From Flectonema sp. DT1601 (taxonomy: Eukaryota), in contig OZ025781.1 of NCBI GenBank assembly GCA_964019425.1, positions 682,001-746,000 of the forward strand: a DNA stretch of 64,000 bases, in the 5' to 3' direction. Shown piece by piece: positions 32,659 through 53,642 of this stretch (position 1 is its first letter; the number at the start of each line of letters is the position of its first letter). The notes under the pieces were generated by a model. The model saw only the letters and a program-made list of their open reading frames with translations, was not told where the DNA came from and made no database searches. A program made the translations under genes and the position numbers.

Positions 32659-35600
32659 ATGCAAGTTTTTGTGACGTGTCCGGATTTGGGATTCCCTGCG
32701 GTGTCAGTCACGGTTGGTGCTGATTCTGTTGTGAGCGACGTGTTGATGGAAGCGGCTGGCGAGTGGGATGTCGATGCGGAGGAAGTTGTACTGTTGTTCG
32801 CTGGTGATGTCCTTTGTGAAAGTGAGCGGCTGGCAGATCATGGAGTGGGTGGAGACAGCGAGTTGGAAATGCGGAAGAAGCTGATTCGGATCTTCGGTAA
32901 AAACTGGTTTGTTGATGATAGAAAAAGGGAGATGCTGCTTCTTTGGATTAGAGATCACAATACGGAGGATTTATATCTGGACACTCTCACATTCTTGGAG
33001 GATGGTTGCCTCACTGTTGACAAAAGATTGCTTCCTTCAGATGCCAAACGGATTTCCTTCCGCCATTCAAACTCCAACAGCACGGTCATCTCACAAGTTA
33101 CTTCTATTGAAGATTTCTTTTTATCTAATTGTTCACAAATCACTTCTGTTGACCTTTCAGGTCTTAGTAGTGTCACCAGTATTGGATATCGTTTTTTGTC
33201 TGATTGTTCAGAAATCACTTCTCTTGACCTTTCAGGTCTTAGTAGTGTCACTAGTATTAAAGATTATTTTTTGTCTAGTTGTTCAGAAATCACTTCTCTT
33301 GACCTTTCAGGTCTCAGTAGTGTCACCAGTATTGGAAATCATTTTTTGTCTAGTTGTTCAAAAATCACTTCTCTTGACCTTTCAGGTCTTATTAGTGTCA
33401 CCAGTATTGGAAATTGTTTTTTGTCTTGGTGTTCAGAAATCACTTCTGTTAACCTTTCAGGTCTTAGTAGTGTCATCAATATTGGAAGTAATTTTTTGTC
33501 TTATTGTCAAAAAATCACTTCTCTTGACCTTTCAGGTCTTAGTAGTGTCACCAGAATTGGAGATTGTTTTTTGTCTTGGTGTTCACAAATAACTTCTGTT
33601 GACCTTTCAGGTCTTAGTAGTGTCACCAGTATTGGATATCGTTTTTTGTCTGATTGTTCAGAAATCACTTCTCTTGACCTTTCAGGTCTTAGTAGTGTCA
33701 CTAGTATTAAAGATTATTTTTTGTCTAGTTGTTCAGAAATCACTTCTCTTGACCTTTCAGGTCTCAGTAGTGTCACCAGTATTGGAAATCATTTTTTGTC
33801 TAGTTGTTCAAAAATCACTTCTCTTGACCTTTCAGGTCTTATTAGTGTCACCAGTATTGGAAATTGTTTTTTGTCTTGGTGTTCAGAAATCACTTCTGTT
33901 AACCTTTCAGGTCTTAGTAGTGTCATCAATATTGGAAGTAATTTTTTGTCTTATTGTCAAAAAATCACTTCTCTTGACCTTTCAGGTCTTAGTAGTGTCA
34001 CCAGAATTGGAGATTGTTTTTTGTCTTGGTGTTCACAAATAACTTCTGTTGACCTTTCAGGTCTTAGTAGTGTCACCAGTATTGGATATCGTTTTTTCTC
34101 TGAGTGTTCAGAAATCACTTCTCTTGACCTTTCAGGTCTTAGTAGTGTCACCAGTATTAGAAATCATTTTTTGTCTGATTGTTCAGAAATCACTTCTCTT
34201 GAACTTTCAGGTCTTAGTAGTGTCACTAGTATTGAAGGTTGTTTTTTGTCTAGTTGTTCAGAAATCACTTCTCTTGACCTTTCAGGTCTTAGTAGTGTCA
34301 CCAGTATTGGAAATTGTTTTTTGTCTAGTTGTTCAGAAATCACTTCTCTTGACCTTTCAGGTCTTAGTAGTGTCACCAGTATTGGAAATTGTTTTTTGTC
34401 TAGTTGTTCAGAAATCACTTCTCTTGACCTTTCAGGTCTTAGTAGTGTCATCAGTATTGGAAATCTTTTTTTGTCTAGTTGTTCAAAAATCACTTCTCTT
34501 GACCTTTCAGGTCTTAGTAGTGTCATCAGTATTGGAAATCTTTTTTTGTCTAGTTGTTCAGAAATCACTTCTCTTGACCTTTCAGGTCTTAGTAGTGTCA
34601 CCAGTATTGGAGATTGTTTTTTGTCTGAGTGTTCAGAAATCACTTCTCTCGACCTTTCAGGTCTTAGTAGTGTCACCAGTATTGGAGATTGTTTTTTGTC
34701 TGAGTGTTCAGAAATCACTTCTGTTAACCTTTCAGGTCTTAGTAGTGTCATCAATATTGGAAGTAATTTTTTGTCTTATTGTCAAAAAATCACTTCTCTT
34801 GACCTTTCAGGTCTTAGTAGTGTCACCAGAATTGGAGATTGTTTTTTGTCTTGGTGTTCACAAATAACTTCTGTTGACCTTTCAGGTCTTAGTAGTGTCA
34901 CCAGTATTGGATATCGTTTTTTGTCTGATTGTTCAGAAATCACTTCTCTTGACCTTTCAGGTCTTAGTAGTGTCACTAGTATTAAAGATTATTTTTTGTC
35001 TAGTTGTTCAGAAATCACTTCTCTTGACCTTTCAGGTCTCAGTAGTGTCACCAGTATTGGAAATCATTTTTTGTCTAGTTGTTCAAAAATCACTTCTCTT
35101 GACCTTTCAGGTCTTATTAGTGTCACCAGTATTGGAAATTGTTTTTTGTCTTGGTGTTCAGAAATCACTTCTGTTAACCTTTCAGGTCTTAGTAGTGTCA
35201 TCAATATTGGAAGTAATTTTTTGTCTTATTGTCAAAAAATCACTTCTCTTGACCTTTCAGGTCTTAGTAGTGTCACCAGAATTGGAGATTGTTTTTTGTC
35301 TTGGTGTTCACAAATAACTTCTGTTGACCTTTCAGGTCTTAGTAGTGTCACCAGTATTGGATATCGTTTTTTCTCTGAGTGTTCAGAAATCACTTCTCTT
35401 GACCTTTCAGGTCTTAGTAGTGTCACCAGTATTAGAAATCATTTTTTGTCTGATTGTTCAGAAATCACTTCTCTTGAACTTTCAGGTCTTAGTAGTGTCA
35501 CTAGTATTGAAGGTTGTTTTTTGTCTAGTTGTTCAGAAATCACTTCTCTTGACCTTTCAGGTCTTAGTAGTGTCACCAGTATTGGAAATTGTTTTTTGTC

Positions 35601-36063
35601 TAGTTGTTCAGAAATCACTTCTCTTGACCTTTCAGGTCTTAGTAGTGTCATCAGTATTGGAAATCTTTTTTTGTCTAGTTGTTCAAAAATCACTTCTCTT
35701 GACCTTTCAGGTCTTAGTAGTGTCATCAGTATTGGAAATCTTTTTTTGTCTAGTTGTTCAGAAATCACTTCTCTTGACCTTTCAGGTCTTAGTAGTGTCA
35801 CCAGTATTGGAGATTGTTTTTTGTCTGAGTGTTCAGAAATCACTTCTCTCGACCTTTCAGGTCTTAGTAGTGTCACCAGTATTGGAGATTGTTTTTTGTC
35901 TGAGTGTTCAGAAATCACTTCTGTTGACCTTTCAGGTCTTAGTGATGTTGAAGAAATTGGTGTGGCCTTCTTCGATAATTGCAGTGCCCTGAAATCTGTT
36001 CAGCTGCCTGAAAATAATGGAGCTCTCTTTGAACCGTCTGTGAAAGCTGCGATTAATCATTAA
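32659..36063 (+). CDS. UBL-LRR protein copy 1: ubiquitin-like domain + 38 x 25-aa BspA/TpLRR-type repeats
   Basis: MQVFV..LLFAGDVL..RLADHGVGGDSELEM aligns by eye with ubiquitin; ITSLDLSGLSSVTSIGxxFLSxCSx units with exact 75-bp period from 33151 to 35926; C-cap ending AAINH. Confidence 0.92.
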   Translation: MQVFVTCPDLGFPAVSVTVGADSVVSDVLMEAAGEWDVDAEEVVLLFAGDVLCESERLADHGVGGDSELEMRKKLIRIFGKNWFVDDRKREMLLLWIRDHNTEDLYLDTLTFLEDGCLTVDKRLLPSDAKRISFRHSNSNSTVISQVTSIEDFFLSNCSQITSVDLSGLSSVTSIGYRFLSDCSEITSLDLSGLSSVTSIKDYFLSSCSEITSLDLSGLSSVTSIGNHFLSSCSKITSLDLSGLISVTSIGNCFLSWCSEITSVNLSGLSSVINIGSNFLSYCQKITSLDLSGLSSVTRIGDCFLSWCSQITSVDLSGLSSVTSIGYRFLSDCSEITSLDLSGLSSVTSIKDYFLSSCSEITSLDLSGLSSVTSIGNHFLSSCSKITSLDLSGLISVTSIGNCFLSWCSEITSVNLSGLSSVINIGSNFLSYCQKITSLDLSGLSSVTRIGDCFLSWCSQITSVDLSGLSSVTSIGYRFFSECSEITSLDLSGLSSVTSIRNHFLSDCSEITSLELSGLSSVTSIEGCFLSSCSEITSLDLSGLSSVTSIGNCFLSSCSEITSLDLSGLSSVTSIGNCFLSSCSEITSLDLSGLSSVISIGNLFLSSCSKITSLDLSGLSSVISIGNLFLSSCSEITSLDLSGLSSVTSIGDCFLSECSEITSLDLSGLSSVTSIGDCFLSECSEITSVNLSGLSSVINIGSNFLSYCQKITSLDLSGLSSVTRIGDCFLSWCSQITSVDLSGLSSVTSIGYRFLSDCSEITSLDLSGLSSVTSIKDYFLSSCSEITSLDLSGLSSVTSIGNHFLSSCSKITSLDLSGLISVTSIGNCFLSWCSEITSVNLSGLSSVINIGSNFLSYCQKITSLDLSGLSSVTRIGDCFLSWCSQITSVDLSGLSSVTSIGYRFFSECSEITSLDLSGLSSVTSIRNHFLSDCSEITSLELSGLSSVTSIEGCFLSSCSEITSLDLSGLSSVTSIGNCFLSSCSEITSLDLSGLSSVISIGNLFLSSCSKITSLDLSGLSSVISIGNLFLSSCSEITSLDLSGLSSVTSIGDCFLSECSEITSLDLSGLSSVTSIGDCFLSECSEITSVDLSGLSDVEEIGVAFFDNCSALKSVQLPENNGALFEPSVKAAINH

Positions 36064-37933
36064 ATGTAAAGTGTTGAATTGATTCTTGGTTGTCATGTAT
36101 TTTATATTTTTAATGTTTTGTTGTCAATAAAACGTGGTATCAACTTTTACCAAGTGACGAGACCTCGGAATCTATGATTCTCCTCGCGTCTCATCACTTC
36201 TCTTCCGATGATATTATTCTGCCAAGTTATCTTTTTTTCCCTGAGCGTTTGCTAGTAATACTGTTTGCGATTATGCAAAAATCTACGTCTGTTTTCTGAG
36301 TAATCTTTTTTTTTTGTTCCGACGAAGTCGGAAAAGAAACTATTCAGATTGAAAGTCGATATTTCTTATGGTCATGATTAATTTTCACCATGCGACAGGA
36401 TTTTGTCCCCCCGAATTGCCAGATTCGACAACGTCTTCTGGTCAGTAAGACGAAAAATAGTTTTTTTTTCATTTTTATGTTTTCTTTTTTGTTTTTTCTA
36501 AACGTAATTATTCTTTGATTAACAATTACAAATATTTTTCAGTCAAGTACTTGATATTAATTTTGTTTTTAATACCTAAAGTTATTACTGTTTTTACATT
36601 GTAAAAGTAGCACCCCATGCGACAGGATTTTATCTGTGTTTAACGAAATATAAGGCTGATCTGAATGGTTTTTTTGTACTTATTTTGTTTCACACCCCGT
36701 CCTTGGATCTGACAGGTATTTTTCAGTTGAGTACTTTGATATTAATTTAATTTTAATACCAAAATTCCATGTTGGTAACGTGCCGCTAACAATGAATGAA
36801 GAGGGAGAAAAGCTTCTGTTTGGTTGGGTCAACCAACTGAACGTTTCTCCGCCGATATCGGGACGGAAATTATTTACAAGATATTCGTAAAATGTATCAA
36901 GCGAAAGTTATTTTGTAGTGTTCATTCTTTTATCAGACTTTCAAGCCTTTCCCCGTTTTCAATAATAAATCTTAATCCCACCCGCCATTCCTCGTAGTGC
37001 CGATCCTCCCCAAGGGAAGATCGGCACATTAATGTTCATGAAGCAGATACTCTAAGGCAGACGTCTACTCGTCGTCAAGGGTAGACCGCCAAGTTGACGA
37101 CCCTATATGTATATGATTACCGAGTGAATTGTTTTCTATCCTTCATCATCATCTTTCTTTCTTCAGGTGCAAAAAGAATGCAATAGTTGATTACCGAGTA
37201 CAACAAAGTTTTTATATTTATCACTCTAATTTACTAACTCAGTAGATGTAAATTCATGTAGCGTTGGTGCATCAAAGTAGTTGAGAATTTGAATCGAAAC
37301 TGCCTCAAAGATTCTGTTTTTAAGTTGTCAAAGTTTCACCCCAACCTTCGGATTTAATAAAAGAGCTGTTTTATTATTTTTAATATAAGCTAACTCATTT
37401 GTTTGAAAAAAATGATTTCCAATTAATGTCTTTGCTGAAAAAACCCGTCGATGCCACCACCCCGACATTATTTGTTAGGATTATACAGCCCCCTCATGTT
37501 TTCTAACTGAATTCTGGATAACACTACCATAATTTATGTAAAGTGAGTACTCCGCTATTAGTGTTACTACGAACTAGCAATATGGGTAGGCCATCAAATC
37601 CTGATGGATAGATTAGGGGGGTGTGTGTCCTGTCGGTTCCGAATGTGAAATCTATTACAATTAATGAAGACTTGGTTGTGGATTTACTTATTAATTTATT
37701 AGAGGATTCAGACATTCTAGTTTTTAGAGAAGAGCAAGACGGGTCATGTTATTTTATAGGAAATTACAACTACAGAATATGTTGCACTATTCAGGAATCG
37801 AAGCTGCTTTTCAGTTTTTCCTTATTACTTTACGATTGTTGCCGCCGTTTTGGAACACTTCATCAATATTAATAAACCTTTTCGTCTCTCAGTAGATTAC
37901 TAAAAAAAAGGAAAACAAAAAACAACAACAACA
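36064..37933. repeat. Conserved intergenic spacer of the UBL-LRR tandem unit (also 48818-50687, 53643-55401, 57682-59500)
   Basis: Four near-identical copies of 1870, 1870, 1759 and 1819 bp; the third has an internal deletion, the fourth lacks the segment just before the ATG. Confidence 0.95.
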
Positions 37934-40220
37934 ATGCAAGTTTTTGTGACGTGTCCGGATTTAGGATTCCCTGCGGTGTCAGTCACGGTTGGTGCTGATT
38001 CTGTTGTGAGCGACGTGTTGATGGAAGCGGCTGGCGAGTGGGATGTCGATGCGGAGGAAGTTGTACTGTTGTTCGCTGGTGATGTCCTTTGTGAAAGTGA
38101 GCGGCTGGCAGATCATGGAGTGGGTGGAGACAGCGAGTTGGAAATTCGGAAGAAGCTGATTCGGATCTTCGGTAAAAACTGGTTTGTTGATGATAGAAAA
38201 AGGGAGATGCTGCTTCTTTGGATTAGAGATCACAATACGGAGGATTTATATCTGGACACTCCCACATTCTTGGAGGATGGTTGCCTCACTATTGACAAAA
38301 GATTGCTTCCTTCAGATGCCAAACGGATTTCCTTCCGCCATTCAAACTCCAACAGCACGGTCATCTCACAAGTTACTTCTATTGAAGATTTCTTTTTATC
38401 TGAGTGTTCAGAAATCACTTCTGTTGACCTTTCAGGTCTTAGTAGTATCACCAGTATTGGAGATGATTTTTTGTCTTATTGTTCAAAAATCACTTCTGTT
38501 GACCTTTCAGGTCTTAGTAGTGTCACCAGTATTGGAAATCATTTTTTATTTCGTTGTTCAGAAATCACTTCTCTTGACCTTTCAGGTCTTAGTAGTGTCA
38601 CCAGTATTGGAAATCATTTTTTATTTCGTTGTTCAGAAATCACTTCTGTTGACCTTTCAGGTCTTATTGGTATCACCAGTATTGAAAATTACTTTTTAAA
38701 TAATTGTTTACAAATCACTTCTGTTGACCTTTCAGGTCTTAGTAGTGTCACCAGTATTGGATATCATTTTTTGTCTGAGTGTTCAGAAATCACTTCTCTT
38801 GACCTTTCAGGTCTTAGTAGTGTCACCAGTATTGGAGATTATTTTTTGTCTAGTTGTTCAGAAATCACTTCTCTTGACCTTTCAGGTCTTAGTAGTGTCA
38901 CTAGTATTAAAGATTATTTTTTGTCTAGTTGTTCAGAAATCACTTCTCTTGACCTTTCAGGTCTTAGTAGTGTCATCAGTATTGGAAATCTTTTTTTGTC
39001 TAGTTGTTCAAAAATCACTTCTCTTGACCTTTCAGGTCTTATTAGTGTCACCAGTATTGGAAATTGTTTTTTGTCTTGGTGTTCAGAAATCACTTCTGTT
39101 AACCTTTCAGGTCTTAGTAGTGTCATCAATATTGGAAGTAATTTTTTGTCTTATTGTCAAAAAATCACTTCTCTTGACCTTTCAGGTCTTAGTAGTGTCA
39201 CCAGAATTGGAGATTGTTTTTTGTCTTGGTGTTCACAAATAACTTCTGTTGACCTTTCAGGTCTTAGTAGTGTCACCAGTATTGGATATCGTTTTTTCTC
39301 TGAGTGTTCAGAAATCACTTCTCTTGACCTTTCAGGTCTTAGTAGTGTCACCAGTATTAGAAATCATTTTTTGTCTGATTGTTCAGAAATCACTTCTCTT
39401 GAACTTTCAGGTCTTAGTAGTGTCACTAGTATTGAAGGTTGTTTTTTGTCTAGTTGTTCAGAAATCACTTCTCTTGACCTTTCAGGTCTTAGTAGTGTCA
39501 TCAGTATTGGAAATTGTTTTTTGTCTTGGTGTTCACAAATAACTTCTGTTGACCTTTCAGGTCTTAGTAGTGTCACCAGTATTGGATATCGTTTTTTCTC
39601 TGAGTGTTCAGAAATCACTTCTCTTGACCTTTCAGGTCTTAGTAGTGTCACCAGTATTAGAAATCATTTTTTATTTCGTTGTTCAGAAATCACTTCTCTT
39701 GACCTTTCAGGTCTTAGTAGTGTCACCAGTATTAAAAGTTCTTTTTTGTCTTATTGTTCAGAAATCACTTCTCTTGACCTTTCAGGTCTTAGTAGTGTCA
39801 CCAGTATTAAAAGTTCTTTTTTGTCTTATTGTTCAGAAATCACTTCTCTTGACCTTTCAGGTCTTAGTAGTGTCACCAGTATTGGATATCAATTTTTGTC
39901 TAATTGTTCAGAAATCACTTCTGTTGACCTTTCAGGTCTTAGTAGTGTCACTAGTATTGGAAATGATTTTTTATTTCGTTGTTCAGAAATCACTTCTCTT
40001 GACCTTTCAGGTCTTAGTAGTGTCACCAGTATTAAAAGTTCTTTTTTGTCTTATTGTTCAGAAATCACTTCTCTTGACCTTTCAGGTCTTAGTAGTGTCA
40101 CCAGTATTGGATATCAATTTTTGTCTAATTGTTCAGAAATCACTTCTGTTGACCTTTCAGGTCTTAGTAGTGTCACCAGTATTGGAGATTGTTTTTTGTC
40201 TTATTGTTCAGAAATCACTT
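37934..40220 (+). CDS. UBL-LRR copy 2, 5' part (24 repeats), interrupted by and fused in frame to retrotransposon ORF1
   Basis: Same UBL and LRR units; repeats stop at gaaatcactt (40220) while the frame stays open to 43243. Confidence 0.88.
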
Positions 40221-40288
40221 GGGATCACGACACCTGCCTCCTCGCGGCGGTCCCGGACGACTTCGATAGGGGTCGACAAAACAGTGTC
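40221..40288 (+). ncRNA. HDV-like self-cleaving ribozyme (predicted)
   Basis: P1 GGGAUC/GGUCCC, P2 GACAC(C)U/AGUGUC, P3 GCC/GGC with L3 UCCUCGC, GG for P1.1, P4 CGACUUC-GAUA-GGGGUCG, J4/2 ACAAAAC; starts at the first base of the element. Confidence 0.8.
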
Positions 40289-40576
40289 AAACACAAGAGA
40301 TGCCAACAACATCAAAACCATCAAAACCAGCTACAACATCCAGAGCATACAAACCCTGGCTTGTCAAATAAAGAACGGAATAAACTAGCCCATGCCTTGA
40401 ATGGCAATGGTGGACCAGGAAAGGACAGCAGAGACCGACGCCCGCGAGACGATACTCGCGACAGGGACGAAAACCGTCCAAACAAGGAGGAACGTCGCAT
40501 AGCGAAGCTCGAGAAAGAGAAACTCGACTCGCTAGACGAGATAGAGGAAGAGAAGCAACGACTGGGGCAGCAGAGA

Positions 40577-43243
40577 ATGGCCATGGAACAGCACCACCAC
40601 CAGAAGGAAACCAACCTTCAAGGACAAGAAAAACAGTTGGAACAGCAACGCCAACACCAACAACAAGAACTGCAAAGTCAGTACCACCAACAACAGCAGC
40701 AACTGCAAAGCCATCATCAGCTGAAGGAAACGGAAAGTTTCCAGAAGGAGCAAAACCTACAGGCTCAACTCAAGGAGCGACACCAGCACCAACAGAAGGA
40801 ATTGGAGAAGCAATACCGCCAACAACAACAGCAACTGGAAAGCCAACAGCAGAAGAAGGACGCCGAGTCTGAACAGCAAACACATCTGACTCGGTTACAA
40901 CTACAGAAGGAAAAGGAATCCTTCCAGACAGAGAAGGAACGGCTCCACCTCCAGCTGGATCAGCAGTTGAAGAACGAGAAGGAGCACCTCCACCAACAAC
41001 TCCAACAGAAGGAAGACGAGGTTCGTAAAGAAAAGTTAGCAGAGAGAATAGAACTCCAACAACTACGAGATGAACTAACTCAACAAGAACAGAACATCCA
41101 ACGACGTGAGGAAGAGGTGAACCGAGGACAGCACCAACTACACCAACAACAACAACAACTAGAGCAGCAGCAACAGCAATCGCAACATCAGCAACTGGAA
41201 CTACAACAACAACGGCAACAACAGCAACAGCAACAACAGCATCAACAACTGGAACTACAACAACAACAACAACAACAGCACCAACAACAGCATCAACAAC
41301 TGGAACTGGAACAACAACAACTACAACAGCAACAGCAACTGCAACAACATCGACAACCGCAACAACAACCGCAACAGCAACCCGTACACTACATGCAACA
41401 TCAACCGTATGCAACGTACGACACCTACGCCCAGCAGCAGCAGTCTTCCCACTACGAAGGGCTACAACAGGAACTGAAGCGCGAAAGAGAGGAGAAGAGC
41501 GAACTACGCGAGATGCTCCGAACTCTCCAACAACAACTGGACGGATTGAGAGAAGAACTCAAGGCCCAACATGCTGAGGCGAAGAGGCAGCAGGAAACGG
41601 CGGGACGAGAAGCGAGAGAGATGCAAGAACGTTTCTTGCTAGAACTCGAAGCGGAACGGGTCCAGATCAGAGGGCTCAACTCGCTGAGAGAAGAGGAAGA
41701 GGAACTTCAGATGGACACCACCCCTGATCAGGAAGCAAACACGGAAGTGAAGCAAACGCCACCGGTGAAGCTGCCCCAAGACGGTATGAGGGAGCTGGAC
41801 GCCTCACGCAAGAAGCTGATGAAAGAAATCAATGAAGGGCAGGTAGCCGGACGATCGGCCATCCAAGAGCAGATGGTCCGAGAGGCCGGGAGACTGGCGC
41901 AGACTCAGAAGAGCTGGGAGAACGCAGCACGCAAGGAGCGATCCAGGGTGGATAACCTCTCGCTGGCACCGGAATACTGGCCAGAGGGAATGGCGATCAC
42001 GAAGGAGCAGTACGACGCCGGTGCAAAGGGAGTACACCTCACCACCAGAGAGGAGGCAAGGAAGAGGATGTCGGGAACACCTCCGGGAGCCTGGGAAACG
42101 TTATCCCTGGTAACCCTGGAACCACCATCAAGCACGGCCCAAAAAGTACAAGTGGTACTGAAGGAGACGACGAGCGACGGCGAGAAGAGAATTCTCAAGC
42201 AGCTCTGGATGACAACACTGGGAAGAGTGGTTGTACCATCCGGAACAGACGTCGTGCGGACGGAAAGCACGAGGGAGATGGTTGTCCGAGTGGACAAAAA
42301 ATGGTCCGGAGAGAAGAGATGGTCGGAAGTGAAGCGCTCCCCGTTCAGAGCAACGGAGGAATTGAAGAAGATGCCGGGGTACGTCGATACGTACAACCCG
42401 CGGATCGGAGACCAGAGCGTGACCGTGATGCTCAGGGTGAAGGTAGCCGAAGTGAAGAACTTCCTCCGAGAATCGGGGAAGGACGGCGTCTTCACCAAGG
42501 AAAAGGATCCGAGAGAGGAACGAGCAGTGAAGGCGGCGGTCATTTGGCTACCGAAGGACGAGACGCTCGGAATCGCTCGGGACAAGGCTGTAGAAGTCGA
42601 TGGAGGGCTGGGACTCGTGGTAAACGAACACGGACTCGGGCTTCGAGTGACCAGCTGGCAGGAAACGGCGGCGAGGGAGAAACTGCACCTGCCGGCTAAG
42701 CTACCGGAAACAAAGATCACGGGGATACCGATCGGCACAACCACCGACGAAGCGATCAAGTGGCTGATCACGAAGGAAGGCTGGGAAGTGAGGAAGACGA
42801 AGGAAGGCGTACGGAACGGCATGCGATGGATGGTCGTCCGCGGTCCGGTGAGAACGCAGGAAACCATCACAGTGGATGGCGTCCTGTGCATGGTGGAGGC
42901 TGGGAAACAGAAGGAGGAAGTCGACCCGAAACGGAAGGAGACCAAACGCCCGAATGCGACACCGACGAAACCAGAGAAAAGGCGTGACCCGACGGAGGGA
43001 ACGGGAGGAAAGTGGTACACTCGATTGGAGTTCATCGAGTTTCATGGGAAGAAGAAGGGACAACGCCTATGGTTAGAAGCCAGCAACCCAACACCAACTA
43101 CGACGGCACCTACGAAGGCAGCGACCGCAACGACAACAGCGAAAAAGGAGCCCAAGTCGACAAAAAAGAAGGAGAACAGCTCAGTGGACGAGAGATTGGA
43201 CCGACTGGAACGTCTACTGATGGCGTTCATGGAACGGAATTGA
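40577..43243 (+). CDS. Retrotransposon ORF1 (Gln/Glu-rich coiled coil plus basic C-terminal half); true start uncertain
   Basis: Frame is open from the element's 5' end; first in-frame ATG at 40577; long Q/E-rich helical region; TGA at 43241-43243. Confidence 0.8.
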   Translation: MAMEQHHHQKETNLQGQEKQLEQQRQHQQQELQSQYHQQQQQLQSHHQLKETESFQKEQNLQAQLKERHQHQQKELEKQYRQQQQQLESQQQKKDAESEQQTHLTRLQLQKEKESFQTEKERLHLQLDQQLKNEKEHLHQQLQQKEDEVRKEKLAERIELQQLRDELTQQEQNIQRREEEVNRGQHQLHQQQQQLEQQQQQSQHQQLELQQQRQQQQQQQQHQQLELQQQQQQQHQQQHQQLELEQQQLQQQQQLQQHRQPQQQPQQQPVHYMQHQPYATYDTYAQQQQSSHYEGLQQELKREREEKSELREMLRTLQQQLDGLREELKAQHAEAKRQQETAGREAREMQERFLLELEAERVQIRGLNSLREEEEELQMDTTPDQEANTEVKQTPPVKLPQDGMRELDASRKKLMKEINEGQVAGRSAIQEQMVREAGRLAQTQKSWENAARKERSRVDNLSLAPEYWPEGMAITKEQYDAGAKGVHLTTREEARKRMSGTPPGAWETLSLVTLEPPSSTAQKVQVVLKETTSDGEKRILKQLWMTTLGRVVVPSGTDVVRTESTREMVVRVDKKWSGEKRWSEVKRSPFRATEELKKMPGYVDTYNPRIGDQSVTVMLRVKVAEVKNFLRESGKDGVFTKEKDPREERAVKAAVIWLPKDETLGIARDKAVEVDGGLGLVVNEHGLGLRVTSWQETAAREKLHLPAKLPETKITGIPIGTTTDEAIKWLITKEGWEVRKTKEGVRNGMRWMVVRGPVRTQETITVDGVLCMVEAGKQKEEVDPKRKETKRPNATPTKPEKRRDPTEGTGGKWYTRLEFIEFHGKKKGQRLWLEASNPTPTTTAPTKAATATTTAKKEPKSTKKKENSSVDERLDRLERLLMAFMERN

Positions 43244-43285
43244 CCGGCGGAGGACGGAAGGAACTGGGCGGAGACACGGAGACGT

Positions 43286-43327
43286 CTCCTGCTACAAGCT
43301 GGCGACGTTGAGAGGAACCCCGGACCG
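43286..43327 (+). other. 2A-like (StopGo) ribosomal skipping peptide LLLQAGDVERNPG/P
   Basis: Translation from 43244 gives PAEDGRNWAETRRRLLLQAGDVERNPGPRPRIDGLTVGTINV, matching D(V/I)ExNPGP, in frame with both ORFs. Confidence 0.9.
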
Positions 43328-46300
43328 AGACCACGAATCGATGGGCTCACCGTGGGAACAATCAATGTCACCACACTAGAAGGAAAAATAGATGCCATCA
43401 CAGATCTGAACCTAGATCTGATAGCTCTACAGGAAACTTCTCTGACGGGCCCACAGCAACGCCAGATGAAAAAACAGCTCGGTGAGAGAGGATGGGAAGC
43501 GACGTTCGGGTTAGAGTGCAAATTACTAACCGATGGGCAAAAGACGTGGACGGCGGCGGGAGGCGTGGCCATCTTGACGCGCACTGGTACACCGGTGAGA
43601 AGGATAAAACACGATCGGCTCGACAACACGGGACGATTCGTACACGCGGGAGTGTCGTACGGAAATGGCAAGGTACTGCACGTTTTCTCGTTCTACGGAG
43701 ACGTACGTTCGGCGGTCTACACGGAAGAGTTGATTGCGGAGATGCTCGTGGAAGCAGCAGCTCTGGGTGATGTTCCCGTATTTATAGCGGGGGACTTCAA
43801 CGTCGAAACAACGGAATCGCCGGCGCTTCTGTCGGCTTTCGCACACGGACTCTGGATAGATGCCGCCGTCTCGATGGGAAACATGACACCGACAAGCGAA
43901 GCGGGAAAAGGACTTCGTAGAATCGATGCGATTCTGATGAACCGCGGGGCGGCGACAGCAATCTCGAATGACACAACGATCCATGTGCATAAGAGTGAGC
44001 TGATCCCGACACACAAGCCGGTCATCATTAGAAAGCTCAACATCTCACGCTACAACGAGAAGGCTCCTAGGCTGATAGTACCGAAACAGTTGGATACCTC
44101 CGAGACAACGGACCCGAGTGAGGGGAAGGCCGAAAGGCAACTCCACTGGACGCGAGCTGTAGCGACGGAAGATCCTGACAAGATGCTGGAGGCGCTTGGA
44201 GAGATCATCGAAAGATACCTTCTGACGGGAAAGCTGGAGATAAGTAACCCAGCCAAGTACAAGGGACGCGGGAAGAAGCGTGAGCCTGTGATGTGGACGA
44301 ACGCGGCGAAACAAGACGGGAGAGGAGCGACGTGCAGGGAAACGCGGAGAAGACTGCAGAAGATACGTGTTCTGGAGGAAGTGATGAAAATCACAAAGCA
44401 ACGCGATGGTCCGACGGTGCCGTCCCACGAAGTAATGAAACTCTGGAAAAAATTACGAAAACTCGATCCGACGACGGGATCCGAAATACCACAGACGGAG
44501 GAGCTTCGGATACTACTACAACAAGCGAGACAGGAGCAAGCGATAGAAAGCAAGAAGCTCCGAACTGAACGCATCCGCATGTGGAAACGGAATGTTGTCG
44601 ACAATTGGAATGACGACCGCACGAAGGTTTTCCAGTGGATCAGGAACGTCGAGCAATCGAAGACTGTTCTGATGGAAAAGGCAGATGGAAGCTGGACGGC
44701 CAACTGCTCCGAGATGGATGAGGCCATGCACGCGGCATGGGACCCCATACTCAAAAAGTACTTATCAGACCCGGAACCAGACTGGATGAAGTTCGAAGAA
44801 CGGTACAGCAACTACATCGAGGAACACCCGATGCGATGCGAAGATATCACCGGGGAGGACGTTGCAAAAGCCCTCAGAAGGACTAGCTCGCGCAAAGCAG
44901 CTGGGGTAGACGGCTTCAGGATATCGGAGCTCAAGTCGCTACCGGAGGACATGATCCAGATGATAGCGGAATTCTACAACATAGTGGAGAGAACACACTG
45001 GCCGGAAGCACTTCTCACGGCACTGGTGTCGGCCATACCCAAAGGGGCAGGGACGAAACCACTGGAGCAGAGACCCATTACGGTGACATCCGCACTCTAC
45101 AGGCTATGGGGCTGTATACGTATGGAAAAGGATGTAATGGAGTGGCAAGAGAAGTGGGCTCACGACGGGCAGTACGGCTACCGGAAGGGGAGATCTACGC
45201 TCGACCTCAGCTGGAAGATAGCACTAGACGTGGAACACGCAACTCTCTACGGAGAAGAGATTGCTGGAGTGACCACGGACTTCAGGAAGTGTTTTGACCT
45301 GATCCCGCACGACATCCTCCTGAAATTAGTGAAGGAATTGGGCCTAAGTGATAAGATCCTGAAAACTGTGACGGATGTCTACCGGCGACTCAGAAGGAGA
45401 TTCAAGTTCCCGAGCGGCGTCGGAGAAGAATTTGCCACCACCAACGGAATACTGCAAGGATGCCCGCTCAGCGTGGTGCTCTTCAATGCGCTGAGCTCGA
45501 TACTCAGCAAAGCAATCGAGAGGGAAGCCGATGTGACGCCCGGATCGTATGCGGACGACCTGACATTGTTTGGATCACGAACGAAGCTACAAGAAGGCGT
45601 AGAAGTCGTTGCGGAGTTCTGCACCCTGACCGGACAAGAACTCGCGCCTCAGAAATGCAAGTGGTTCTCGAACAGAGACCAGGGCCAGACCAACATCACA
45701 ATGGGGGACACAACACTGGACTTCGATGACAGTGTCGATATCGTGGGATGCCACCTCAGTATGAAAGGAACCACCAAGCAGATGGGGAGGATCACGGAAG
45801 AAGTGCTCGATAGAGCGAGGCGAATCCAGTTACTTCCGCTCAGATACCAAGCGAAGGAACAGATAGCTGCAGCTAGTGTCATGCCCAAGGCGCTCTTCGG
45901 AACGGCACTGTACGATCCCGATGCGACGCGACTCGGACTGCTGAGAAGAGCAATGGCAACGGGGATTTTCCGCAAACTTGGAGGGAAAAGAACTAAGATG
46001 TCGCACACCATGGGCCTAACGCTACTCTGCAAGGGACATTGTGTGGATCCCGCGACGTACATTAGGTACAACAGACTCCTTGCACTCACCAGAATGCTAC
46101 CGAAGCTAACTGAGAGGATACGCAGGGTATGGGAACACCTGCAAGAGCACACTGAAGCGACGAGAGGACCAGTCGGCCTCGCCCTGAGTACTCTGAAGGA
46201 ACTTGGATGGGAATGGTCAACTTTCTCGGTCTTCGAAGGTCCGGGAGGGACGACCGAACACGGAAGGCTGGATGCGGGGCGCTGGCGGCACGATGTCAGA

Positions 46301-47980
46301 GAGGCGTGCAGGCGTTTCACCTGGAACAAAACAATTGCGGAAACGAGACGGGTAAACCTGAGAGGTATTGAAGCGGGCATCGACCGGAAAGAGACCCTGA
46401 AGGTCCTGAAGGAAGGAAAGGGCGACCCCTACCTGCGCGGAGTAGTGAAGCACTGCCTCCTGGACAACGTGTACACTGGCTCGATGAAGGCGGGAAACAA
46501 GAACTGCGCGCACTGCGAGGAGGTTGACGACGTAGAGAGGACGGAGACCCTCGAGCACGTGAACTGGGATTGCAGAGCTTATGACACAATCCGACAGGAA
46601 TACCCGCAAGTGATGCTACAAGTTCGAAGCGATTGGCCCAATTGCCTGAGGCTACTCGGCATCAAGCCCGACAATGTGGAACTGCCGGCGGGGCTCACCG
46701 GAGACCTACAACGAATGTTCGCACGGATCAGGCTCCGCAGGGACGACTACCAACAACTGGAGGAGAGACGGCTGACGGTTGTGGAATACGCTGGGAACAA
46801 GGAACCGGAAGTAGTTATGCGATACAACAACAAACTGGAAAAGTACATGCCAGTATACACCCAATGGCCCGAAGCCCTTGGATTGACCTTGTACTTAGCG
46901 CTTGCGAGCTACCTGAGGGAACTGAAGTGGCCTCGACAGCCAGACGGGGTCGGAGTCACCTTCCTGGAATTAGCGATCGACTTCGAAGCGTATGCGGGGG
47001 TTGACATACCGACCACAGTCCACGAAGGCCACGTAGCGAAGTGCACCAAAGACAGAGCCGCCGGGAAGAAAGCTGACGTCATGTGTGGACTGATGCTAAG
47101 ATTGAACTTGGTTCACAAGCATTTAGAAGGCGAGGAACAAAGAACCTTTCCCGACTACTGCGTAGGAAGCAACAAAGCCTTACGTCCACTAGGAGCCCCG
47201 GTACTGAAAGGTTTGAAGAAACGACCAGCTTTTCTGATGGGAGACGAAACAGTAGACACAATTCGGAGGACGGTCCAGGAGGCGAACGACGGAAAAGCTG
47301 ACAAAATCAGATTCGGCTTCGAGACTGAGTGCAGGCACTCGAGCGAGAGGGAAGGGAGAGCGGAGAAATGGATAACCGCGGCACGACTTTTCCCATCAAA
47401 GGAAAAAGACGTACAGCTGAGGAGGGAGCTCTGCGAGCGAGGACCGACACGCCCGCCACCCGAGGTCGTCAAGAGACCGGGCATCGCGGAGGGACAAGGA
47501 ACGATGAACTCGACGTGCTACGGACACTTCAAGAAGAAATGCAATAGTTGTCGACGGGCCGGAAACACCATCTACCAGTGCTGCCACAACCATCACACTC
47601 TGGGGGATGAAGATGGACAAATACCGATATGGGACTTTTGCAGCAAGCACAAGCTTACTCCATGTGCAGTCTGCATAGTGATCGGCAGAGGATCTGAGCA
47701 ATGTTGCAGAAACAGCCACCACCGATGCCGTCACCACGAGATGGCTCCCTGCAACGACTGCAAGCGGAATCCGGATCCGGAACAACGGACTGCCACGAAA
47801 TGCTGCAACAAAAAGCATCACGGGCCAATTATAAGGACGTTGACGAGGAGGGCGAAGCAGCCGACGAAGCATGATATGCAAACCAGCACATCGCTTCTAA
47901 AATTAGGTTTCACCAAACAAATGAAACCGAAAGCAGAGGAAACCCCGGAAAGGGAACCACAGGACAAGGGGTTAACTTAG
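43325..47980 (+). CDS. Retrotransposon ORF2: APE endonuclease + reverse transcriptase + CCHC knuckle + Cys/His repeats (start given at the 2A proline)
   Basis: APE: GTINV, IALQET, GGVAIL, IAGDFN, RIDAIL, PTH. RT: AAGVDG, RPITV, QYGYRKGRS, DFRKCFD, GILQGCPLS, YADD. CAHC..ETLEHVNWDC knuckle. No stops or frameshifts. Confidence 0.95.
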   Translation, partial: PRPRIDGLTVGTINVTTLEGKIDAITDLNLDLIALQETSLTGPQQRQMKKQLGERGWEATFGLECKLLTDGQKTWTAAGGVAILTRTGTPVRRIKHDRLDNTGRFVHAGVSYGNGKVLHVFSFYGDVRSAVYTEELIAEMLVEAAALGDVPVFIAGDFNVETTESPALLSAFAHGLWIDAAVSMGNMTPTSEAGKGLRRIDAILMNRGAATAISNDTTIHVHKSELIPTHKPVIIRKLNISRYNEKAPRLIVPKQLDTSETTDPSEGKAERQLHWTRAVATEDPDKMLEALGEIIERYLLTGKLEISNPAKYKGRGKKREPVMWTNAAKQDGRGATCRETRRRLQKIRVLEEVMKITKQRDGPTVPSHEVMKLWKKLRKLDPTTGSEIPQTEELRILLQQARQEQAIESKKLRTERIRMWKRNVVDNWNDDRTKVFQWIRNVEQSKTVLMEKADGSWTANCSEMDEAMHAAWDPILKKYLSDPEPDWMKFEERYSNYIEEHPMRCEDITGEDVAKALRRTSSRKAAGVDGFRISELKSLPEDMIQMIAEFYNIVERTHWPEALLTALVSAIPKGAGTKPLEQRPITVTSALYRLWGCIRMEKDVMEWQEKWAHDGQYGYRKGRSTLDLSWKIALDVEHATLYGEEIAGVTTDFRKCFDLIPHDILLKLVKELGLSDKILKTVTDVYRRLRRRFKFPSGVGEEFATTNGILQGCPLSVVLFNALSSILSKAIEREADVTPGSYADDLTLFGSRTKLQEGVEVVAEFCTLTGQELAPQKCKWFSNRDQGQTNITMGDTTLDFDDSVDIVGCHLSMKGTTKQMGRITEEVLDRARRIQLLPLRYQAKEQIAAASVMPKALFGTALYDPDATRLGLLRRAMATGIFRKLGGKRTKMSHTMGLTLLCKGHCVDPATYIRYNRLLALTRMLPKLTERIRRVWEHLQEHTEATRGPVGLALSTLKELGWEWSTFSVFEGPGGTTEHGRLDAGRWRHDVREACRRFTWNKTIAETRRVNLRGIEAGIDRKETLKVLKEGKGDPYLRGVVKHCLLDNVYTGSMKAGNKNCAHCEEVDDVERTETLEHVNWDCRAYDTIRQEYPQVMLQVRSDWPNCLRLLGIKPDNVELPAGLTGDLQRMFARIRLRRDDYQQLEERRLTVVEYAGNKEPEVVMRYNNKLEKYMPVYTQWPEALGLTLYLALASYLRELKWPRQPDGVGVTFLELAIDFEAYAGVDIPTTVHEGHVAKCTKDRAAGKKADVMCGLMLRLNLVHKHLEGEEQRTFPDYCVGSNKALRPLGAPVLKGLKKRPAFLMGDETVDTIRRTVQEANDGKADKIRFGFETECRHSSEREGRAEKWITAARLFPSKEKDVQLRRELCERGPTRPPPEVVKRPGIAEGQGTMNSTCYGHFKKKCNSCRRAGNTIYQCCHNHHTLGDEDGQIPIWDFCSKHKLTPCAVCIVIGRGSEQCCRNSHHRCRHHEMAPCNDCKRNPDPEQRTATKCCNKKHHGPIIRTLTRRAKQPTKHDMQTSTSLLKLGFTKQMKPKAEETPEREPQDKGLT

Positions 47981-48054
47981 GTTGGCCGAACCAGTGCCTC
48001 GTCATCTCACCGTGCTAGCAAGCCTGAATGACAGCACTCAAAATGGTACATATA

Positions 48055-48817
48055 TTGGTGTTCACAAATAACTTCTGTTGACCTTTCAGGTCTTAGTAGT
48101 GTCACCAGTATTGGATATCGTTTTTTCTCTGAGTGTTCAGAAATCACTTCTCTTGACCTTTCAGGTCTTAGTAGTGTCACCAGTATTAGAAATCATTTTT
48201 TGTCTGATTGTTCAGAAATCACTTCTCTTGAACTTTCAGGTCTTAGTAGTGTCACTAGTATTGAAGGTTGTTTTTTGTCTAGTTGTTCAGAAATCACTTC
48301 TCTTGACCTTTCAGGTCTTAGTAGTGTCACCAGTATTGGAAATTGTTTTTTGTCTAGTTGTTCAGAAATCACTTCTCTTGACCTTTCAGGTCTTAGTAGT
48401 GTCATCAGTATTGGAAATCTTTTTTTGTCTAGTTGTTCAAAAATCACTTCTCTTGACCTTTCAGGTCTTAGTAGTGTCATCAGTATTGGAAATCTTTTTT
48501 TGTCTAGTTGTTCAGAAATCACTTCTCTTGACCTTTCAGGTCTTAGTAGTGTCACCAGTATTGGAGATTGTTTTTTGTCTGAGTGTTCAGAAATCACTTC
48601 TCTCGACCTTTCAGGTCTTAGTAGTGTCACCAGTATTGGAGATTGTTTTTTGTCTGAGTGTTCAGAAATCACTTCTGTTGACCTTTCAGGTCTTAGTGAT
48701 GTTGAAGAAATTGGTGTGGCCTTCTTCGATAATTGCAGTGCCCTGAAATCTGTTCAGCTGCCTGAAAATAATGGAGCTCTCTTTGAACCGTCTGTGAAAG
48801 CTGCGATTAATCATTAA
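48055..48817 (+). pseudogene. Orphaned 3' part of a UBL-LRR gene (9 repeats + C-cap) downstream of the retrotransposon
   Basis: Matches 35301-36063 of copy 1 (both 763 bp); has no start codon of its own. Confidence 0.88.
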
Positions 48818-50687: not shown

Positions 50688-53642
50688 ATGCAAGTTTTTG
50701 TGACGTGTCCGGATTTAGGATTCCCTGCGGTGTCAGTCACGGTTGGTGCTGATTCTGTTGTGAGCGACGTGTTGATGGAAGCGGCTGGCGAGTGGGATGT
50801 CGATGCGGAGGAAGTTGTACTGTTGTTCGCTGGTGATGTCCTTTGTGAAAGTGAGCGGCTGGCAGATCATGGAGTGGGTGGAGACAGCGAGTTGGAAATT
50901 CGGAAGAAGCTGATTCGGATCTTCGGTAAAAACTGGTTTGTTGATGATAGAAAAAGGGAGATGCTGCTTCTTTGGATTAGAGATCACAATACGGAGGATT
51001 TATATCTGGACACTCCCACATTCTTGGAGGATGGTTGCCTCACTATTGACAAAAGATTGCTTCCTTCAGATGCCAAACGGATTTCCTTCCGCCATTCAAA
51101 CTCCAACAGCACGGTCATCTCACAAGTTACTTCTATTGAAGATTTCTTTTTATCTGAGTGTTCAGAAATCACTTCTGTTGACCTTTCAGGTCTTAGTAGT
51201 ATCACCAGTATTGGAGATGATTTTTTGTCTTATTGTTCAAAAATCACTTCTGTTGACCTTTCAGGTCTTAGTAGTGTCACCAGTATTGGAAATCATTTTT
51301 TATTTCGTTGTTCAGAAATCACTTCTCTTGACCTTTCAGGTCTTAGTAGTGTCACCAGTATTGGAAATCATTTTTTATTTCGTTGTTCAGAAATCACTTC
51401 TGTTGACCTTTCAGGTCTTATTGGTATCACCAGTATTGAAAATTACTTTTTAAATAATTGTTTACAAATCACTTCTGTTGACCTTTCAGGTCTTAGTAGT
51501 GTCACCAGTATTGGATATCATTTTTTGTCTGAGTGTTCAGAAATCACTTCTCTTGACCTTTCAGGTCTTAGTAGTGTCACCAGTATTGGAGATTATTTTT
51601 TGTCTAGTTGTTCAGAAATCACTTCTCTTGACCTTTCAGGTCTTAGTAGTGTCACTAGTATTAAAGATTATTTTTTGTCTAGTTGTTCAGAAATCACTTC
51701 TCTTGACCTTTCAGGTCTTAGTAGTGTCATCAGTATTGGAAATCTTTTTTTGTCTAGTTGTTCAAAAATCACTTCTCTTGACCTTTCAGGTCTTATTAGT
51801 GTCACCAGTATTGGAAATTGTTTTTTGTCTTGGTGTTCAGAAATCACTTCTGTTAACCTTTCAGGTCTTAGTAGTGTCATCAATATTGGAAGTAATTTTT
51901 TGTCTTATTGTCAAAAAATCACTTCTCTTGACCTTTCAGGTCTTAGTAGTGTCACCAGAATTGGAGATTGTTTTTTGTCTTGGTGTTCACAAATAACTTC
52001 TGTTGACCTTTCAGGTCTTAGTAGTGTCACCAGTATTGGATATCGTTTTTTCTCTGAGTGTTCAGAAATCACTTCTCTTGACCTTTCAGGTCTTAGTAGT
52101 GTCACCAGTATTAGAAATCATTTTTTGTCTGATTGTTCAGAAATCACTTCTCTTGAACTTTCAGGTCTTAGTAGTGTCACTAGTATTGAAGGTTGTTTTT
52201 TGTCTAGTTGTTCAGAAATCACTTCTCTTGACCTTTCAGGTCTTAGTAGTGTCATCAGTATTGGAAATTGTTTTTTGTCTTGGTGTTCACAAATAACTTC
52301 TGTTGACCTTTCAGGTCTTAGTAGTGTCACCAGTATTGGATATCGTTTTTTCTCTGAGTGTTCAGAAATCACTTCTCTTGACCTTTCAGGTCTTAGTAGT
52401 GTCACCAGTATTAGAAATCATTTTTTGTCTGATTGTTCAGAAATCACTTCTCTTGAACTTTCAGGTCTTAGTAGTGTCACTAGTATTGAAGGTTGTTTTT
52501 TGTCTAGTTGTTCAGAAATCACTTCTCTTGACCTTTCAGGTCTTAGTAGTGTCATCAGTATTGGAAATTGTTTTTTGTCTTGGTGTTCACAAATAACTTC
52601 TGTTGACCTTTCAGGTCTTAGTAGTGTCACCAGTATTGGATATCGTTTTTTCTCTGAGTGTTCAGAAATCACTTCTCTTGACCTTTCAGGTCTTAGTAGT
52701 GTCACCAGTATTAGAAATCATTTTTTGTCTGATTGTTCAGAAATCACTTCTCTTGAACTTTCAGGTCTTAGTAGTGTCACTAGTATTGAAGGTTGTTTTT
52801 TGTCTAGTTGTTCAGAAATCACTTCTCTTGACCTTTCAGGTCTTAGTAGTGTCATCAGTATTGGAAATTGTTTTTTGTCTAGTTGTTCAGAAATCACTGC
52901 TCTTGACCTTTCAGGTCTTAGTAGTGTCATCAGTATTGGAAATCTTTTTTTGTCTTGTTGTTCAAAAATCACTTCTCTTGACCTTTCAGGTCTTAGTAGT
53001 GTCACCAGTATTGGAAATTGTTTTTTGTCTAGTTGTTCAGAAATCACTGCTCTTGACCTTTCAGGTCTTAGTAGTGTCATCAGTATTGGAGATGATTTTT
53101 TGTCTTGTTGTTCAAAAATCACTTCTCTTGACCTTTCAGGTCTTAGTAGTGTCATCAGTATTGGAAATCTTTTTTTGTCTTGTTGTTCAAAAATCACTTC
53201 TCTTGACCTTTCAGGTCTTAGTAGTGTCACCAGTATTGGAAATTGTTTTTTATTTAGTTGTTCAGAAATCACTTCTCTTGACCTTTCAGGTCTTAGTAGT
53301 GTCACCAGTATTGGAAATCATTTTTTATTTCGTTGTTCAGAAATGACTTCTCTCGACCTTTCAGGTCTTAGTAGTGTCACCAGTATTGGAGATTGTTTTT
53401 TGTCTGAGTGTTCAGAAATCACTTCTCTCGACCTTTCAGGTCTTAGTAGTGTCACCAGTATTGGAGATTGTTTTTTGTCTGAGTGTTCAGAAATCACTTC
53501 TGTTGACCTTTCAGGTCTTAGTGATGTTGAAGAAATTGGTGTGGCCTTCTTCGATAATTGCAGTGCCCTGAAATCTGTTCAGCTGCCTGAAAATAATGGA
53601 GCTCTCTTTGAACCGTCTGTGAAAGCTGCGATTAATCATTAA
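50688..53642 (+). CDS. UBL-LRR protein copy 3 (32 repeats)
   Basis: Intact 984-aa ORF with the same architecture as copy 1. Confidence 0.92.
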   Translation: MQVFVTCPDLGFPAVSVTVGADSVVSDVLMEAAGEWDVDAEEVVLLFAGDVLCESERLADHGVGGDSELEIRKKLIRIFGKNWFVDDRKREMLLLWIRDHNTEDLYLDTPTFLEDGCLTIDKRLLPSDAKRISFRHSNSNSTVISQVTSIEDFFLSECSEITSVDLSGLSSITSIGDDFLSYCSKITSVDLSGLSSVTSIGNHFLFRCSEITSLDLSGLSSVTSIGNHFLFRCSEITSVDLSGLIGITSIENYFLNNCLQITSVDLSGLSSVTSIGYHFLSECSEITSLDLSGLSSVTSIGDYFLSSCSEITSLDLSGLSSVTSIKDYFLSSCSEITSLDLSGLSSVISIGNLFLSSCSKITSLDLSGLISVTSIGNCFLSWCSEITSVNLSGLSSVINIGSNFLSYCQKITSLDLSGLSSVTRIGDCFLSWCSQITSVDLSGLSSVTSIGYRFFSECSEITSLDLSGLSSVTSIRNHFLSDCSEITSLELSGLSSVTSIEGCFLSSCSEITSLDLSGLSSVISIGNCFLSWCSQITSVDLSGLSSVTSIGYRFFSECSEITSLDLSGLSSVTSIRNHFLSDCSEITSLELSGLSSVTSIEGCFLSSCSEITSLDLSGLSSVISIGNCFLSWCSQITSVDLSGLSSVTSIGYRFFSECSEITSLDLSGLSSVTSIRNHFLSDCSEITSLELSGLSSVTSIEGCFLSSCSEITSLDLSGLSSVISIGNCFLSSCSEITALDLSGLSSVISIGNLFLSCCSKITSLDLSGLSSVTSIGNCFLSSCSEITALDLSGLSSVISIGDDFLSCCSKITSLDLSGLSSVISIGNLFLSCCSKITSLDLSGLSSVTSIGNCFLFSCSEITSLDLSGLSSVTSIGNHFLFRCSEMTSLDLSGLSSVTSIGDCFLSECSEITSLDLSGLSSVTSIGDCFLSECSEITSVDLSGLSDVEEIGVAFFDNCSALKSVQLPENNGALFEPSVKAAINH

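Follow-up and report, generated by a model that had tools for sequence, protein, structure and literature searches.

Structure of the element and its ORF1/ORF2 boundary

The window analysed here is a stretch of 64,000 nucleotides from Flectonema sp. DT1601 (assembly GCA_964019425.1, contig OZ025781.1, positions 682,001 to 746,000), and all positions below are counted from its first letter, on its plus strand. It contains a long interspersed nuclear element (LINE) of ~7.8 kb (about 40220-48057), single-copy within the window, with two open reading frames (ORFs). ORF1 (40220..43240, about 1007 codons) encodes a Gln-rich, coiled-coil-like part and, after it, a conserved C-terminal domain, and ends at a TGA (43241..43243). 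The same frame continues through a 2A/StopGo-like peptide into ORF2, which past the predicted skip occupies 43325..47977 and comprises an apurinic/apyrimidinic endonuclease (APE) domain at about 43391-43960, a reverse transcriptase (RT) at about 45059-45685 and a Cys/His-rich C-terminus. The ORF2 protein matches PF03372 over residues 50-239 (E 1.9e-06, above its cut-off) and PF00078 over residues 606-814 (E 1.2e-23), and its sequence matches solved LINE-1 ORF2p structures (E 4e-17). The element is thus an APE-type LINE. ORF2 closes at a TAG (47978..47980), and its C-terminus (...REPQDKGLT) is common to the Flectonema relatives; these also conserve the Cys/His clusters CCHNHH, CCRNSHHRC and CCNKKHH encoded at about 47300-47850, which may form a zinc-binding module.

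Reading of the letters around the ORF1 stop (cgg aat TGA c, with the +4 C at 43244) bears out the anatomy given in the original prediction, made from the DNA alone, which had ORF1 ending in AAT TGA C, the frame running on for 27 codons to NPG/P (the slash marking the skip) and into the APE domain, and no ATG ahead of the first APE motifs. From 43244 on, the frame stays open for 1578 codons until it meets the TAG (47978-47980); its codons 1-28 encode PAEDGRNWAETRRRLLLQAGDVERNPGP. The peptide PAEDGRNWAETRRRLLLQAGDVERNPG/P is followed directly by RPRIDGLTVGTINVTTLEG. The first in-frame ATG of ORF2 (43466..43468) is codon 75 and lies past the endonuclease motif residues N41 (TINVTTL) and E64 (LQET), both invariant in an APE alignment of nine clade members and equivalent to catalytic motif residues of the L1 endonuclease. 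A start of ORF2 at this ATG was rejected, the product losing its endonuclease motifs. The first ATG, GTG or TTG after the stop is a GTG at 43352..43354, which gene callers use to begin ORF2 in other copies (M(G/E)TINV...).

The position of this boundary is conserved among relatives. Other copies of the subfamily are known as predicted proteins, and copies were compared at the protein level. The element is multi-copy, with 22 members of the ORF2 cluster on contigs of several different lengths and eight ORF1 members; the other copies are 98.5-99.6% identical to the window ORF2, a divergent intact one (P0001) at 98.5%. Among the eight ORF1 members (~98-99% identity), two break off early and the six that reach the end all close with ...LLMAFMERN. 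In a second ORF1 subfamily, from the same kind of source and 57-63% identical, 22 of 22 proteins end in ...RLERLL(L/M)(S/T)LVG(S/G)K at the aligned position. In the diplonemid Flectonema neradi, three of three transcript isoforms (36-40% identical) stop at that position too, with the ending ...MTQMMQRN. The requirement of the original prediction that the stop be fixed in other copies is therefore borne out for the position of the ORF1 end (6/6, 22/22 and 3/3), at the protein level, where the identity of the codon is not visible. The ORF2 side agrees: of the 15 cluster members listed, eight hold the N-terminus, and all eight begin M(G/E)TINV at the post-2A GTG, which implies a stop upstream in those copies. 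No ORF1-ORF2 fusion was present among proteins of 867-2762 aa; longer ones, which would necessarily include host sequence, were not searched. Public contigs covering 42400-44000 (four runs) yielded one identical contig of 6325 nt, which probably represents the source itself, and no variant at the stop. A run carrying a different organism and study label (X2) contributed a stretch of contig, 149 nt long, that matches the APE region at 43469-43617 letter for letter, with the rest of 42400-44000 uncovered.

The 2A/StopGo-like peptide lies at 43256..43327 (GRNWAETRRRLLLQAGDVERNPG/P), with the predicted skip between the Gly codon at 43322-43324 and the Pro codon at 43325-43327. Its core, GDVERNPGP, conforms to the canonical D(V/I)ExNPG/P pattern (RRRLLLQAGDVERNPG/P) with all consensus residues intact. 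The upstream part, NWAETRRRLLLQAG, has the properties expected of a 2A (~18-23 residues, Leu-rich and helix-prone), as these are set out in the accessible portion of bioRxiv 10.64898/2026.06.17.732966. The stop is separated from the conserved block by a linker of only four codons (43244..43255, PAED), so the whole 2A unit is kept. The 27 codons between the stop and the skip hold no AUG, and the tract is putatively translated.

The peptide is conserved across the clade. When the whole library was searched by HMMER with the 450 N-terminal residues as query, 439 relatives were returned at E <= 0.001; 174 related proteins were inspected for NPGP. The motif occurs 33 times in 32 of these 174 proteins, and in 24 of the 33 occurrences the first APE motif follows within 60 residues. 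Variants across the clade include GDVE(R/Q/E)NPGP, GD(V/I)HPNPGP and (T)DGEA(S/A/K)NPGP; non-canonical pre-APE motifs are found in P0033, P0043, P0044, P0053, P0081, P0083 and others, and NPGK, HPGK or LPGP at some loci. In the F. neradi protein P0002, the 23 residues ahead of the skip are conserved (DRNWAEIKRNLLLQANDVEENPGP), with 17 of 24 positions identical by hand count, against 53% identity for the protein overall. This conservation, together with the frequency of the motif just before APE in the clade, places the 2A motif beyond chance. From the sequences compared, a 2A-like peptide directly ahead of APE is a clade trait, in agreement with the literature on 2A in LINE ORF2s (PMC3894237; and, in their accessible portions, PMC3708506, bioRxiv 10.64898/2026.06.17.732966 and 10.64898/2026.09.24.754024). 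2A peptides have been active in every eukaryotic system tested so far (PMC3894237).

The closest ORF2 relatives, P0002 and P0003 of F. neradi, differ at the N-terminus. Both have their own Met and a leader of ~190 aa that contains Cys and His motifs; after the leader comes the 2A in P0002 and a degenerate 2A (...KNPGL) in P0003. The assignment of this leader to Pfam Josephin is weak (E 0.012, below the cut-off), and no meaningful sequence match was found for it in the PDB. The window subfamily has neither leader nor AUG, and with only four codons from stop to 2A block it does not show the layout of a Josephin deubiquitinase (DUB) followed by 2A and ORF2p. The simplest history of its layout would be a deletion of spacer and leader.

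Proposed read-through followed by StopGo, and the alternatives

The reading favoured here, to which a probability of about 45% is assigned, is that ORF2 is made by read-through of the UGA-C followed by StopGo at the 2A. Ribosomes would occasionally pass the conserved ORF1 stop, ORF2 having no start codon of its own. The 2A 27 codons on would release the extended ORF1 protein, and the ribosome would continue with a free ORF2 protein starting at Pro-43325 (PRPRIDG..., N-terminus PRPRIDGLTVGTINVTTLEGK). The level of read-through would then set the ORF1:ORF2 ratio. This reading is favoured because the two ORFs share a frame, ORF2 lacks an AUG, the whole 2A unit is kept behind the stop, and the 2A is given an obvious job, namely freeing ORF2p from an ORF1 product of roughly 1000 residues or longer. 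We infer each of its three parts, the leaky stop, the active 2A and the ratio set by read-through.

Several observations weigh against it, beginning with the signals around the stop. Of all stop contexts, UGA-C is the leakiest in several eukaryotes; known extended read-through motifs include CUAG and CARYYA. At this stop only the +4 C fits, and the following CCG GCG matches no extended read-through motif. Read-through is also stimulated by RNA structures placed ~8 nt after the stop. The hairpin that the original prediction had proposed about 27 nt downstream exists as a weak, local structure (43267..43293): GGAGAC (43270-43275) and GTCTCC (43284-43289) are present and can pair, within a 9-bp bulged hairpin of -13.1 kcal/mol. 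Taken alone, in a 31-nt window picked after the hairpin had been seen, it scores z = -2.7. Its significance does not survive in larger contexts, where folding is ordinary compared with shuffled sequences (z of -0.86 for 57 nt, 0.06 for 87 nt and -0.15 for 123 nt, 43238-43360), and it begins 24 nt past the stop, beyond the ~8 nt of known stimulators. An Rfam search of 39800-48300 gave one chance-level match (E 0.18) and no SECIS, ribozyme or read-through element; together, the folding tests and Rfam revealed no stimulatory 3' RNA structure near the stop.

The remaining points against read-through concern the relatives and the limits of comparison. The Met and leader of P0002 and P0003 mean that the window layout is possibly the result of a recent deletion. 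The shared frame of ORF1 and ORF2 would arise by chance in one case in three. Intact ORFs are no proof of selection, because copies that are 98.5-99.6% identical are too young, and those copies are known as proteins in which the identity of the stop codon and the linker sequence are not visible. The literature search found no inter-ORF read-through in LINEs; for L1 and SART1 the documented mechanism is reinitiation (accessible text of PMC3708506). Metagenome relatives, obtained by a scan with alignment A3, carry little weight, the 15 loci being distant, GC-rich and mostly decayed. At three of them (L012, L002 and L005) ORF2 has its own ATG before the 2A, which also counts against read-through. 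Two others, short and GC-rich, resemble the element at this point, which counts weakly for read-through: the nearest upstream in-frame stop of L001 (35% identical, decayed) is a TGA 36 codons before G/P, and L007 has a TGA-C 73 codons before NPGP, in both cases with no ATG between. In L001 (1-300) and L007 (1-700) the frame is open upstream of the TGA; a KSPAHKK motif in the upstream frame is common to L001 and L012.

The alternative that survives best, though we regard it as somewhat unlikely, is termination followed by reinitiation, in which ribosomes stop at the UGA and a fraction restarts independently of AUG within a few codons, with the 2A trimming a short leader and/or damping ORF2 output. 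Reinitiation is a documented route to LINE ORF2, in L1 (Alisch 2006) and SART1 (Kojima 2005), as cited in the accessible text of PMC3708506 and in PMC3894237, and short leaders with N-terminal 2As are common in LINE ORF2s (PMC3894237 and the clade proteins). The lack of a read-through stimulator in the folding and Rfam analyses also speaks for it. The local sequence offers it little: apart from two inside ORF1 that run back into the same stop, no ATG lies in frame or close by, and there is no TGGGA motif resembling a termination upstream ribosome-binding site (TURBS) within 190 nt upstream, the nearest lying 196 nt upstream. With no stop-start overlap and no in-frame ATG until 43466, the boundary is not of the SART1 or calicivirus type. 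ORF1 with the host part exceeds 1000 codons, and long upstream ORFs have been argued to disfavour reinitiation (PMC3894237). Reinitiation explains the rest of the anatomy equally well and leaves the shared frame of both ORFs unexplained.

A second alternative, to which we give clearly less credence, is that the window subfamily is a crippled derivative: a recent deletion would have taken the ORF2 start and the Cys/His (Josephin-like) leader, the 2A would be a relic, and the copies, with ORF2 hardly translated, would have spread by an enzyme supplied in trans or in a brief burst. The F. neradi relatives show what would have been lost, a Met and ~190-aa leader ahead of an intact (P0002) or degenerate (P0003) 2A; copies 98.5-99.6% identical need no selection to keep their frames intact, and many ORF2 cluster members are fragmentary. 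Against such a history, no intact helper ORF2 of the clade was found in the same source (among proteins of 867-2762 aa and 518-2000 aa), at least eight copies are leaderless in addition to the divergent intact P0001 (98.5%), and the consensus residues of the 2A are all intact.

Removal of the stop at the RNA level is improbable. Here editing of the UGA to a sense codon, a very small intron or alternative trans-splicing would, in a minority of transcripts, leave the ORFs fused or separately translatable. In diplonemids every mRNA arises by trans-splicing of a polycistronic precursor, as described in the accessible text of PMC10161547, which gives this some plausibility. There is no pyrimidine tract of >=8 nt, the mark of a splice acceptor, between 42800 and 43500, and a trans-spliced ORF2 mRNA would still be AUG-less. 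Nuclear mRNA editing of stops is not known in this group.

The two remaining explanations were rejected. A nonsense mutation private to a single dead copy of a single-frame ORF1-2A-ORF2 element, an alternative raised in the original prediction, would have precedent in the stop-free ORF1p-2A-ORF2p fusions of Cordylochernes scorpioides (accessible text of bioRxiv 10.64898/2026.06.17.732966), and one metagenome locus (L008, 72% GC, weak) may be one long frame; it is very improbable, failing on ORF1 ends that fall at the same place in every relative whose end was visible (6/6, 22/22 and 3/3) and on eight of eight other ORF2 N-termini located past the stop. Still more remote is the idea that the organism decodes TGA as an amino acid: stop reassignment is known in some Euglenozoa (Blastocrithidia), but across host LRR part, ORF1 and ORF2 (3357 codons in all) TGG is used 50 times and TGA appears nowhere except as the ORF1 stop, so the genetic code is standard here, and callers that treat TGA as a stop yield ORF1 ends that agree across relatives.

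The interrupted host gene and the start of the element

The LINE splits a host gene built of 75-nt (25-aa) BspA-type leucine-rich repeats (LRRs). The upstream part of this gene (37904..40219) runs without interruption into ORF1, forming one open frame from 37904 to 43243, and its 75-nt repeats are common to paralogous arrays; the repeats pick up again at about 48058, in the downstream part (48058..48817). G+C content rises from ~35% to ~54% at the 5' junction, the LINE as a whole being at 52-58% and the host region at ~34-38%. The gene belongs to a tandem family of LRR-unit genes (75 nt/25 aa, units 87-96% identical) at 33105-35943, 38380-40220, 48059-48697, 51134-53522 and 55848-57538. No tRNA genes were found in the window.

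At the 3' end, the element closes with a short tail (47981..48057) that contains no poly(A) run and no simple repeat, features expected of a LINE; poly(A) is missing in some LINE clades. A clean target-site duplication is absent, the flanking LRR words being similar and not identical (TGTTCAGAAATCACTT and TGTTCACAAATAACTT).

At the 5' end, the junction (40217-40225, ...CSEIT/WDHDTCLLAAVPDDFDRGRQ) recurs in other copies. All four copies with a visible 5' end are joined in frame to LRRs at the same repeat position: ...CSEIT/WDHD in the window, ...CERIT/WDHD in P0020, ...CSRIT/WDHD in P0179 and ...CSQIT/RDHD in P0180. An equivalent join, ...CTSLV/WDRV, is present in the F. neradi transcripts P0026 and P0200, which places the insertion after C-x-x-I/L-T/V. 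P0020, the equivalent LRR-ORF1 fusion protein, matches PF13306 (LRR_5). The LRR contexts differ between copies, so the LRR stretches belong to the host, not to the element. An N-terminal module beginning MQVFVTCP... opens the interrupted gene as well as P0179 and P0180.

ORF1 has no ATG in its first ~118 codons, yet conserved residues are found there (SNKERNKLAHALNGNG compared with SSKQRNKLAHTINGNG and SNKKRNKEAHITNGNG). These comparisons suggest a target-specific LINE that may be read from the start codon of the host gene. ORF1 being AUG-less and in frame with the LRR gene, the whole element may be translated from the host AUG. The nearest relatives with data are diplonemids, and it is from these relatives that a diplonemid-like organism is suggested for the window. 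Such host-start translation would fit diplonemid biology, because diplonemid genes are co-transcribed and every mRNA is trans-spliced from polycistronic precursors (accessible text of PMC10161547). Combined with the favoured reading of the boundary, this would give a LINE without a start codon on either ORF, in which the host AUG leads to an LRR-ORF1 fusion, UGA read-through follows, and the 2A frees the endonuclease and RT; we consider this full chain doubtful. If true, the expression of the retrotransposon's proteins would rest wholly on host initiation and two consecutive recoding events. The literature search found no description of such an LRR-joined LINE. The position-specific, in-frame LRR insertion points to a possible new target specificity, and to the borrowing of host translation initiation in a trans-splicing organism.

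Proteins of the second ORF1 subfamily (P0022-P0025 and P0181-P0198) begin with a Met of their own (MPPRGGLGR...) and are not fused to LRRs. Among proteins of 867-2762 aa and 518-2000 aa, no intact ORF2 belonging to this subfamily was found; P0028 (295 aa, 52% identical to the APE region of the window) may be a remnant. The ORF1 protein of the window matched no Pfam family. Its AlphaFold2 model was poor (mean pLDDT 55), and Foldseek found nothing in the PDB at E <= 0.001 and a top score of 0.75 in the ESM Atlas. A metagenome scan with an alignment of the ORF1 C-terminus returned 363 pattern matches and no relatives, and viral contigs returned none.

Comparison with known systems

By what route the second ORF of a LINE is translated has been asked for a long time, and reinitiation, in L1 and SART1, is the only documented answer. 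In the element, a ratio device of the retroviral gag-stop-pol kind, with a 2A in the place of the protease, could be tested directly; if the favoured reading is true, the element would be the first case found of read-through coupled to StopGo. A 2A before APE and the DUB-2A-ORF2p and ORF1p-2A-ORF2p layouts are already in print. No publication was found that describes a conserved in-frame stop just ahead of a 2A together with an ORF2 lacking an AUG; the observation of this layout is robust, and the mechanism is what we infer from it. The statement of the original prediction that the combination is unknown among described LINEs holds to the extent that a search of titles and abstracts found no inter-ORF read-through in LINEs.

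In gammaretrovirus Gag-stop-Pol and at the alphavirus UGA-C, a structural or abundant protein and a polymerase lie in one frame, and a single leaky stop sets their ratio. Read-through there depends on a defined pseudoknot or stem-loop on the 3' side, about 8 nt past the stop, and the enzyme is cut free by a protease. The element likewise has a single stop between two proteins in one frame. It differs in that no such structure was found, and the 2A would replace the protease.

APE-type LINEs with a 2A are known from trypanosomes (L1Tc/ingi) and animals (CR1, L2, Rex1, Crack and STR), according to the accessible text of Odon et al. 2013 (PMC3708506) and Luke et al. 2013 (PMC3894237), and the hosts of L1Tc/ingi belong to a related group (Euglenozoa). 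In these LINEs the ORF that contains the 2A starts with an AUG, and elements with a 2A tend to have lost ORF1, only a few (for example CR1-26_BF) having both. The element of the window runs counter to this published correlation: it has a ~1000-codon ORF1, an AUG-less ORF2 and, 27 codons ahead of the skip, a UGA that is conserved and in frame. With a conserved ORF1 and no AUG on ORF2, it is not a single-ORF 2A LINE of the L1Tc/ingi type. Closer in layout are the Josephin-DUB-2A-ORF2p LINEs of Haematococcus and the ORF1p-2A-ORF2p fusions of a pseudoscorpion, as described in the accessible text of bioRxiv 10.64898/2026.06.17.732966. In these, and in their Josephin/OTU DUB counterparts, a 2A likewise stands between an upstream module and APE-RT, and the Flectonema relatives carry such a Cys/His leader. 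As far as that text describes them, they are uninterrupted ORFs, whereas here a conserved stop parts ORF1 from the 2A and there is no leader.

Human L1 ORF2 and the UAAUG of SART1 share with the element a bicistronic LINE RNA in which ORF2 needs ribosomes fresh from ORF1, and in L1 this is independent of AUG. Their ORFs need not be in frame and there is no 2A; SART1 moreover requires an overlapping AUG, which is absent here. Two recoding events within a few codons of one mRNA have a parallel in cardioviruses, where StopGo is closely followed by a -1 frameshift (accessible text of PMC5009743). The order and the setting differ: in that virus polyprotein the 2A comes before the frameshift, whereas in this retrotransposon read-through would come first and the 2A would follow.

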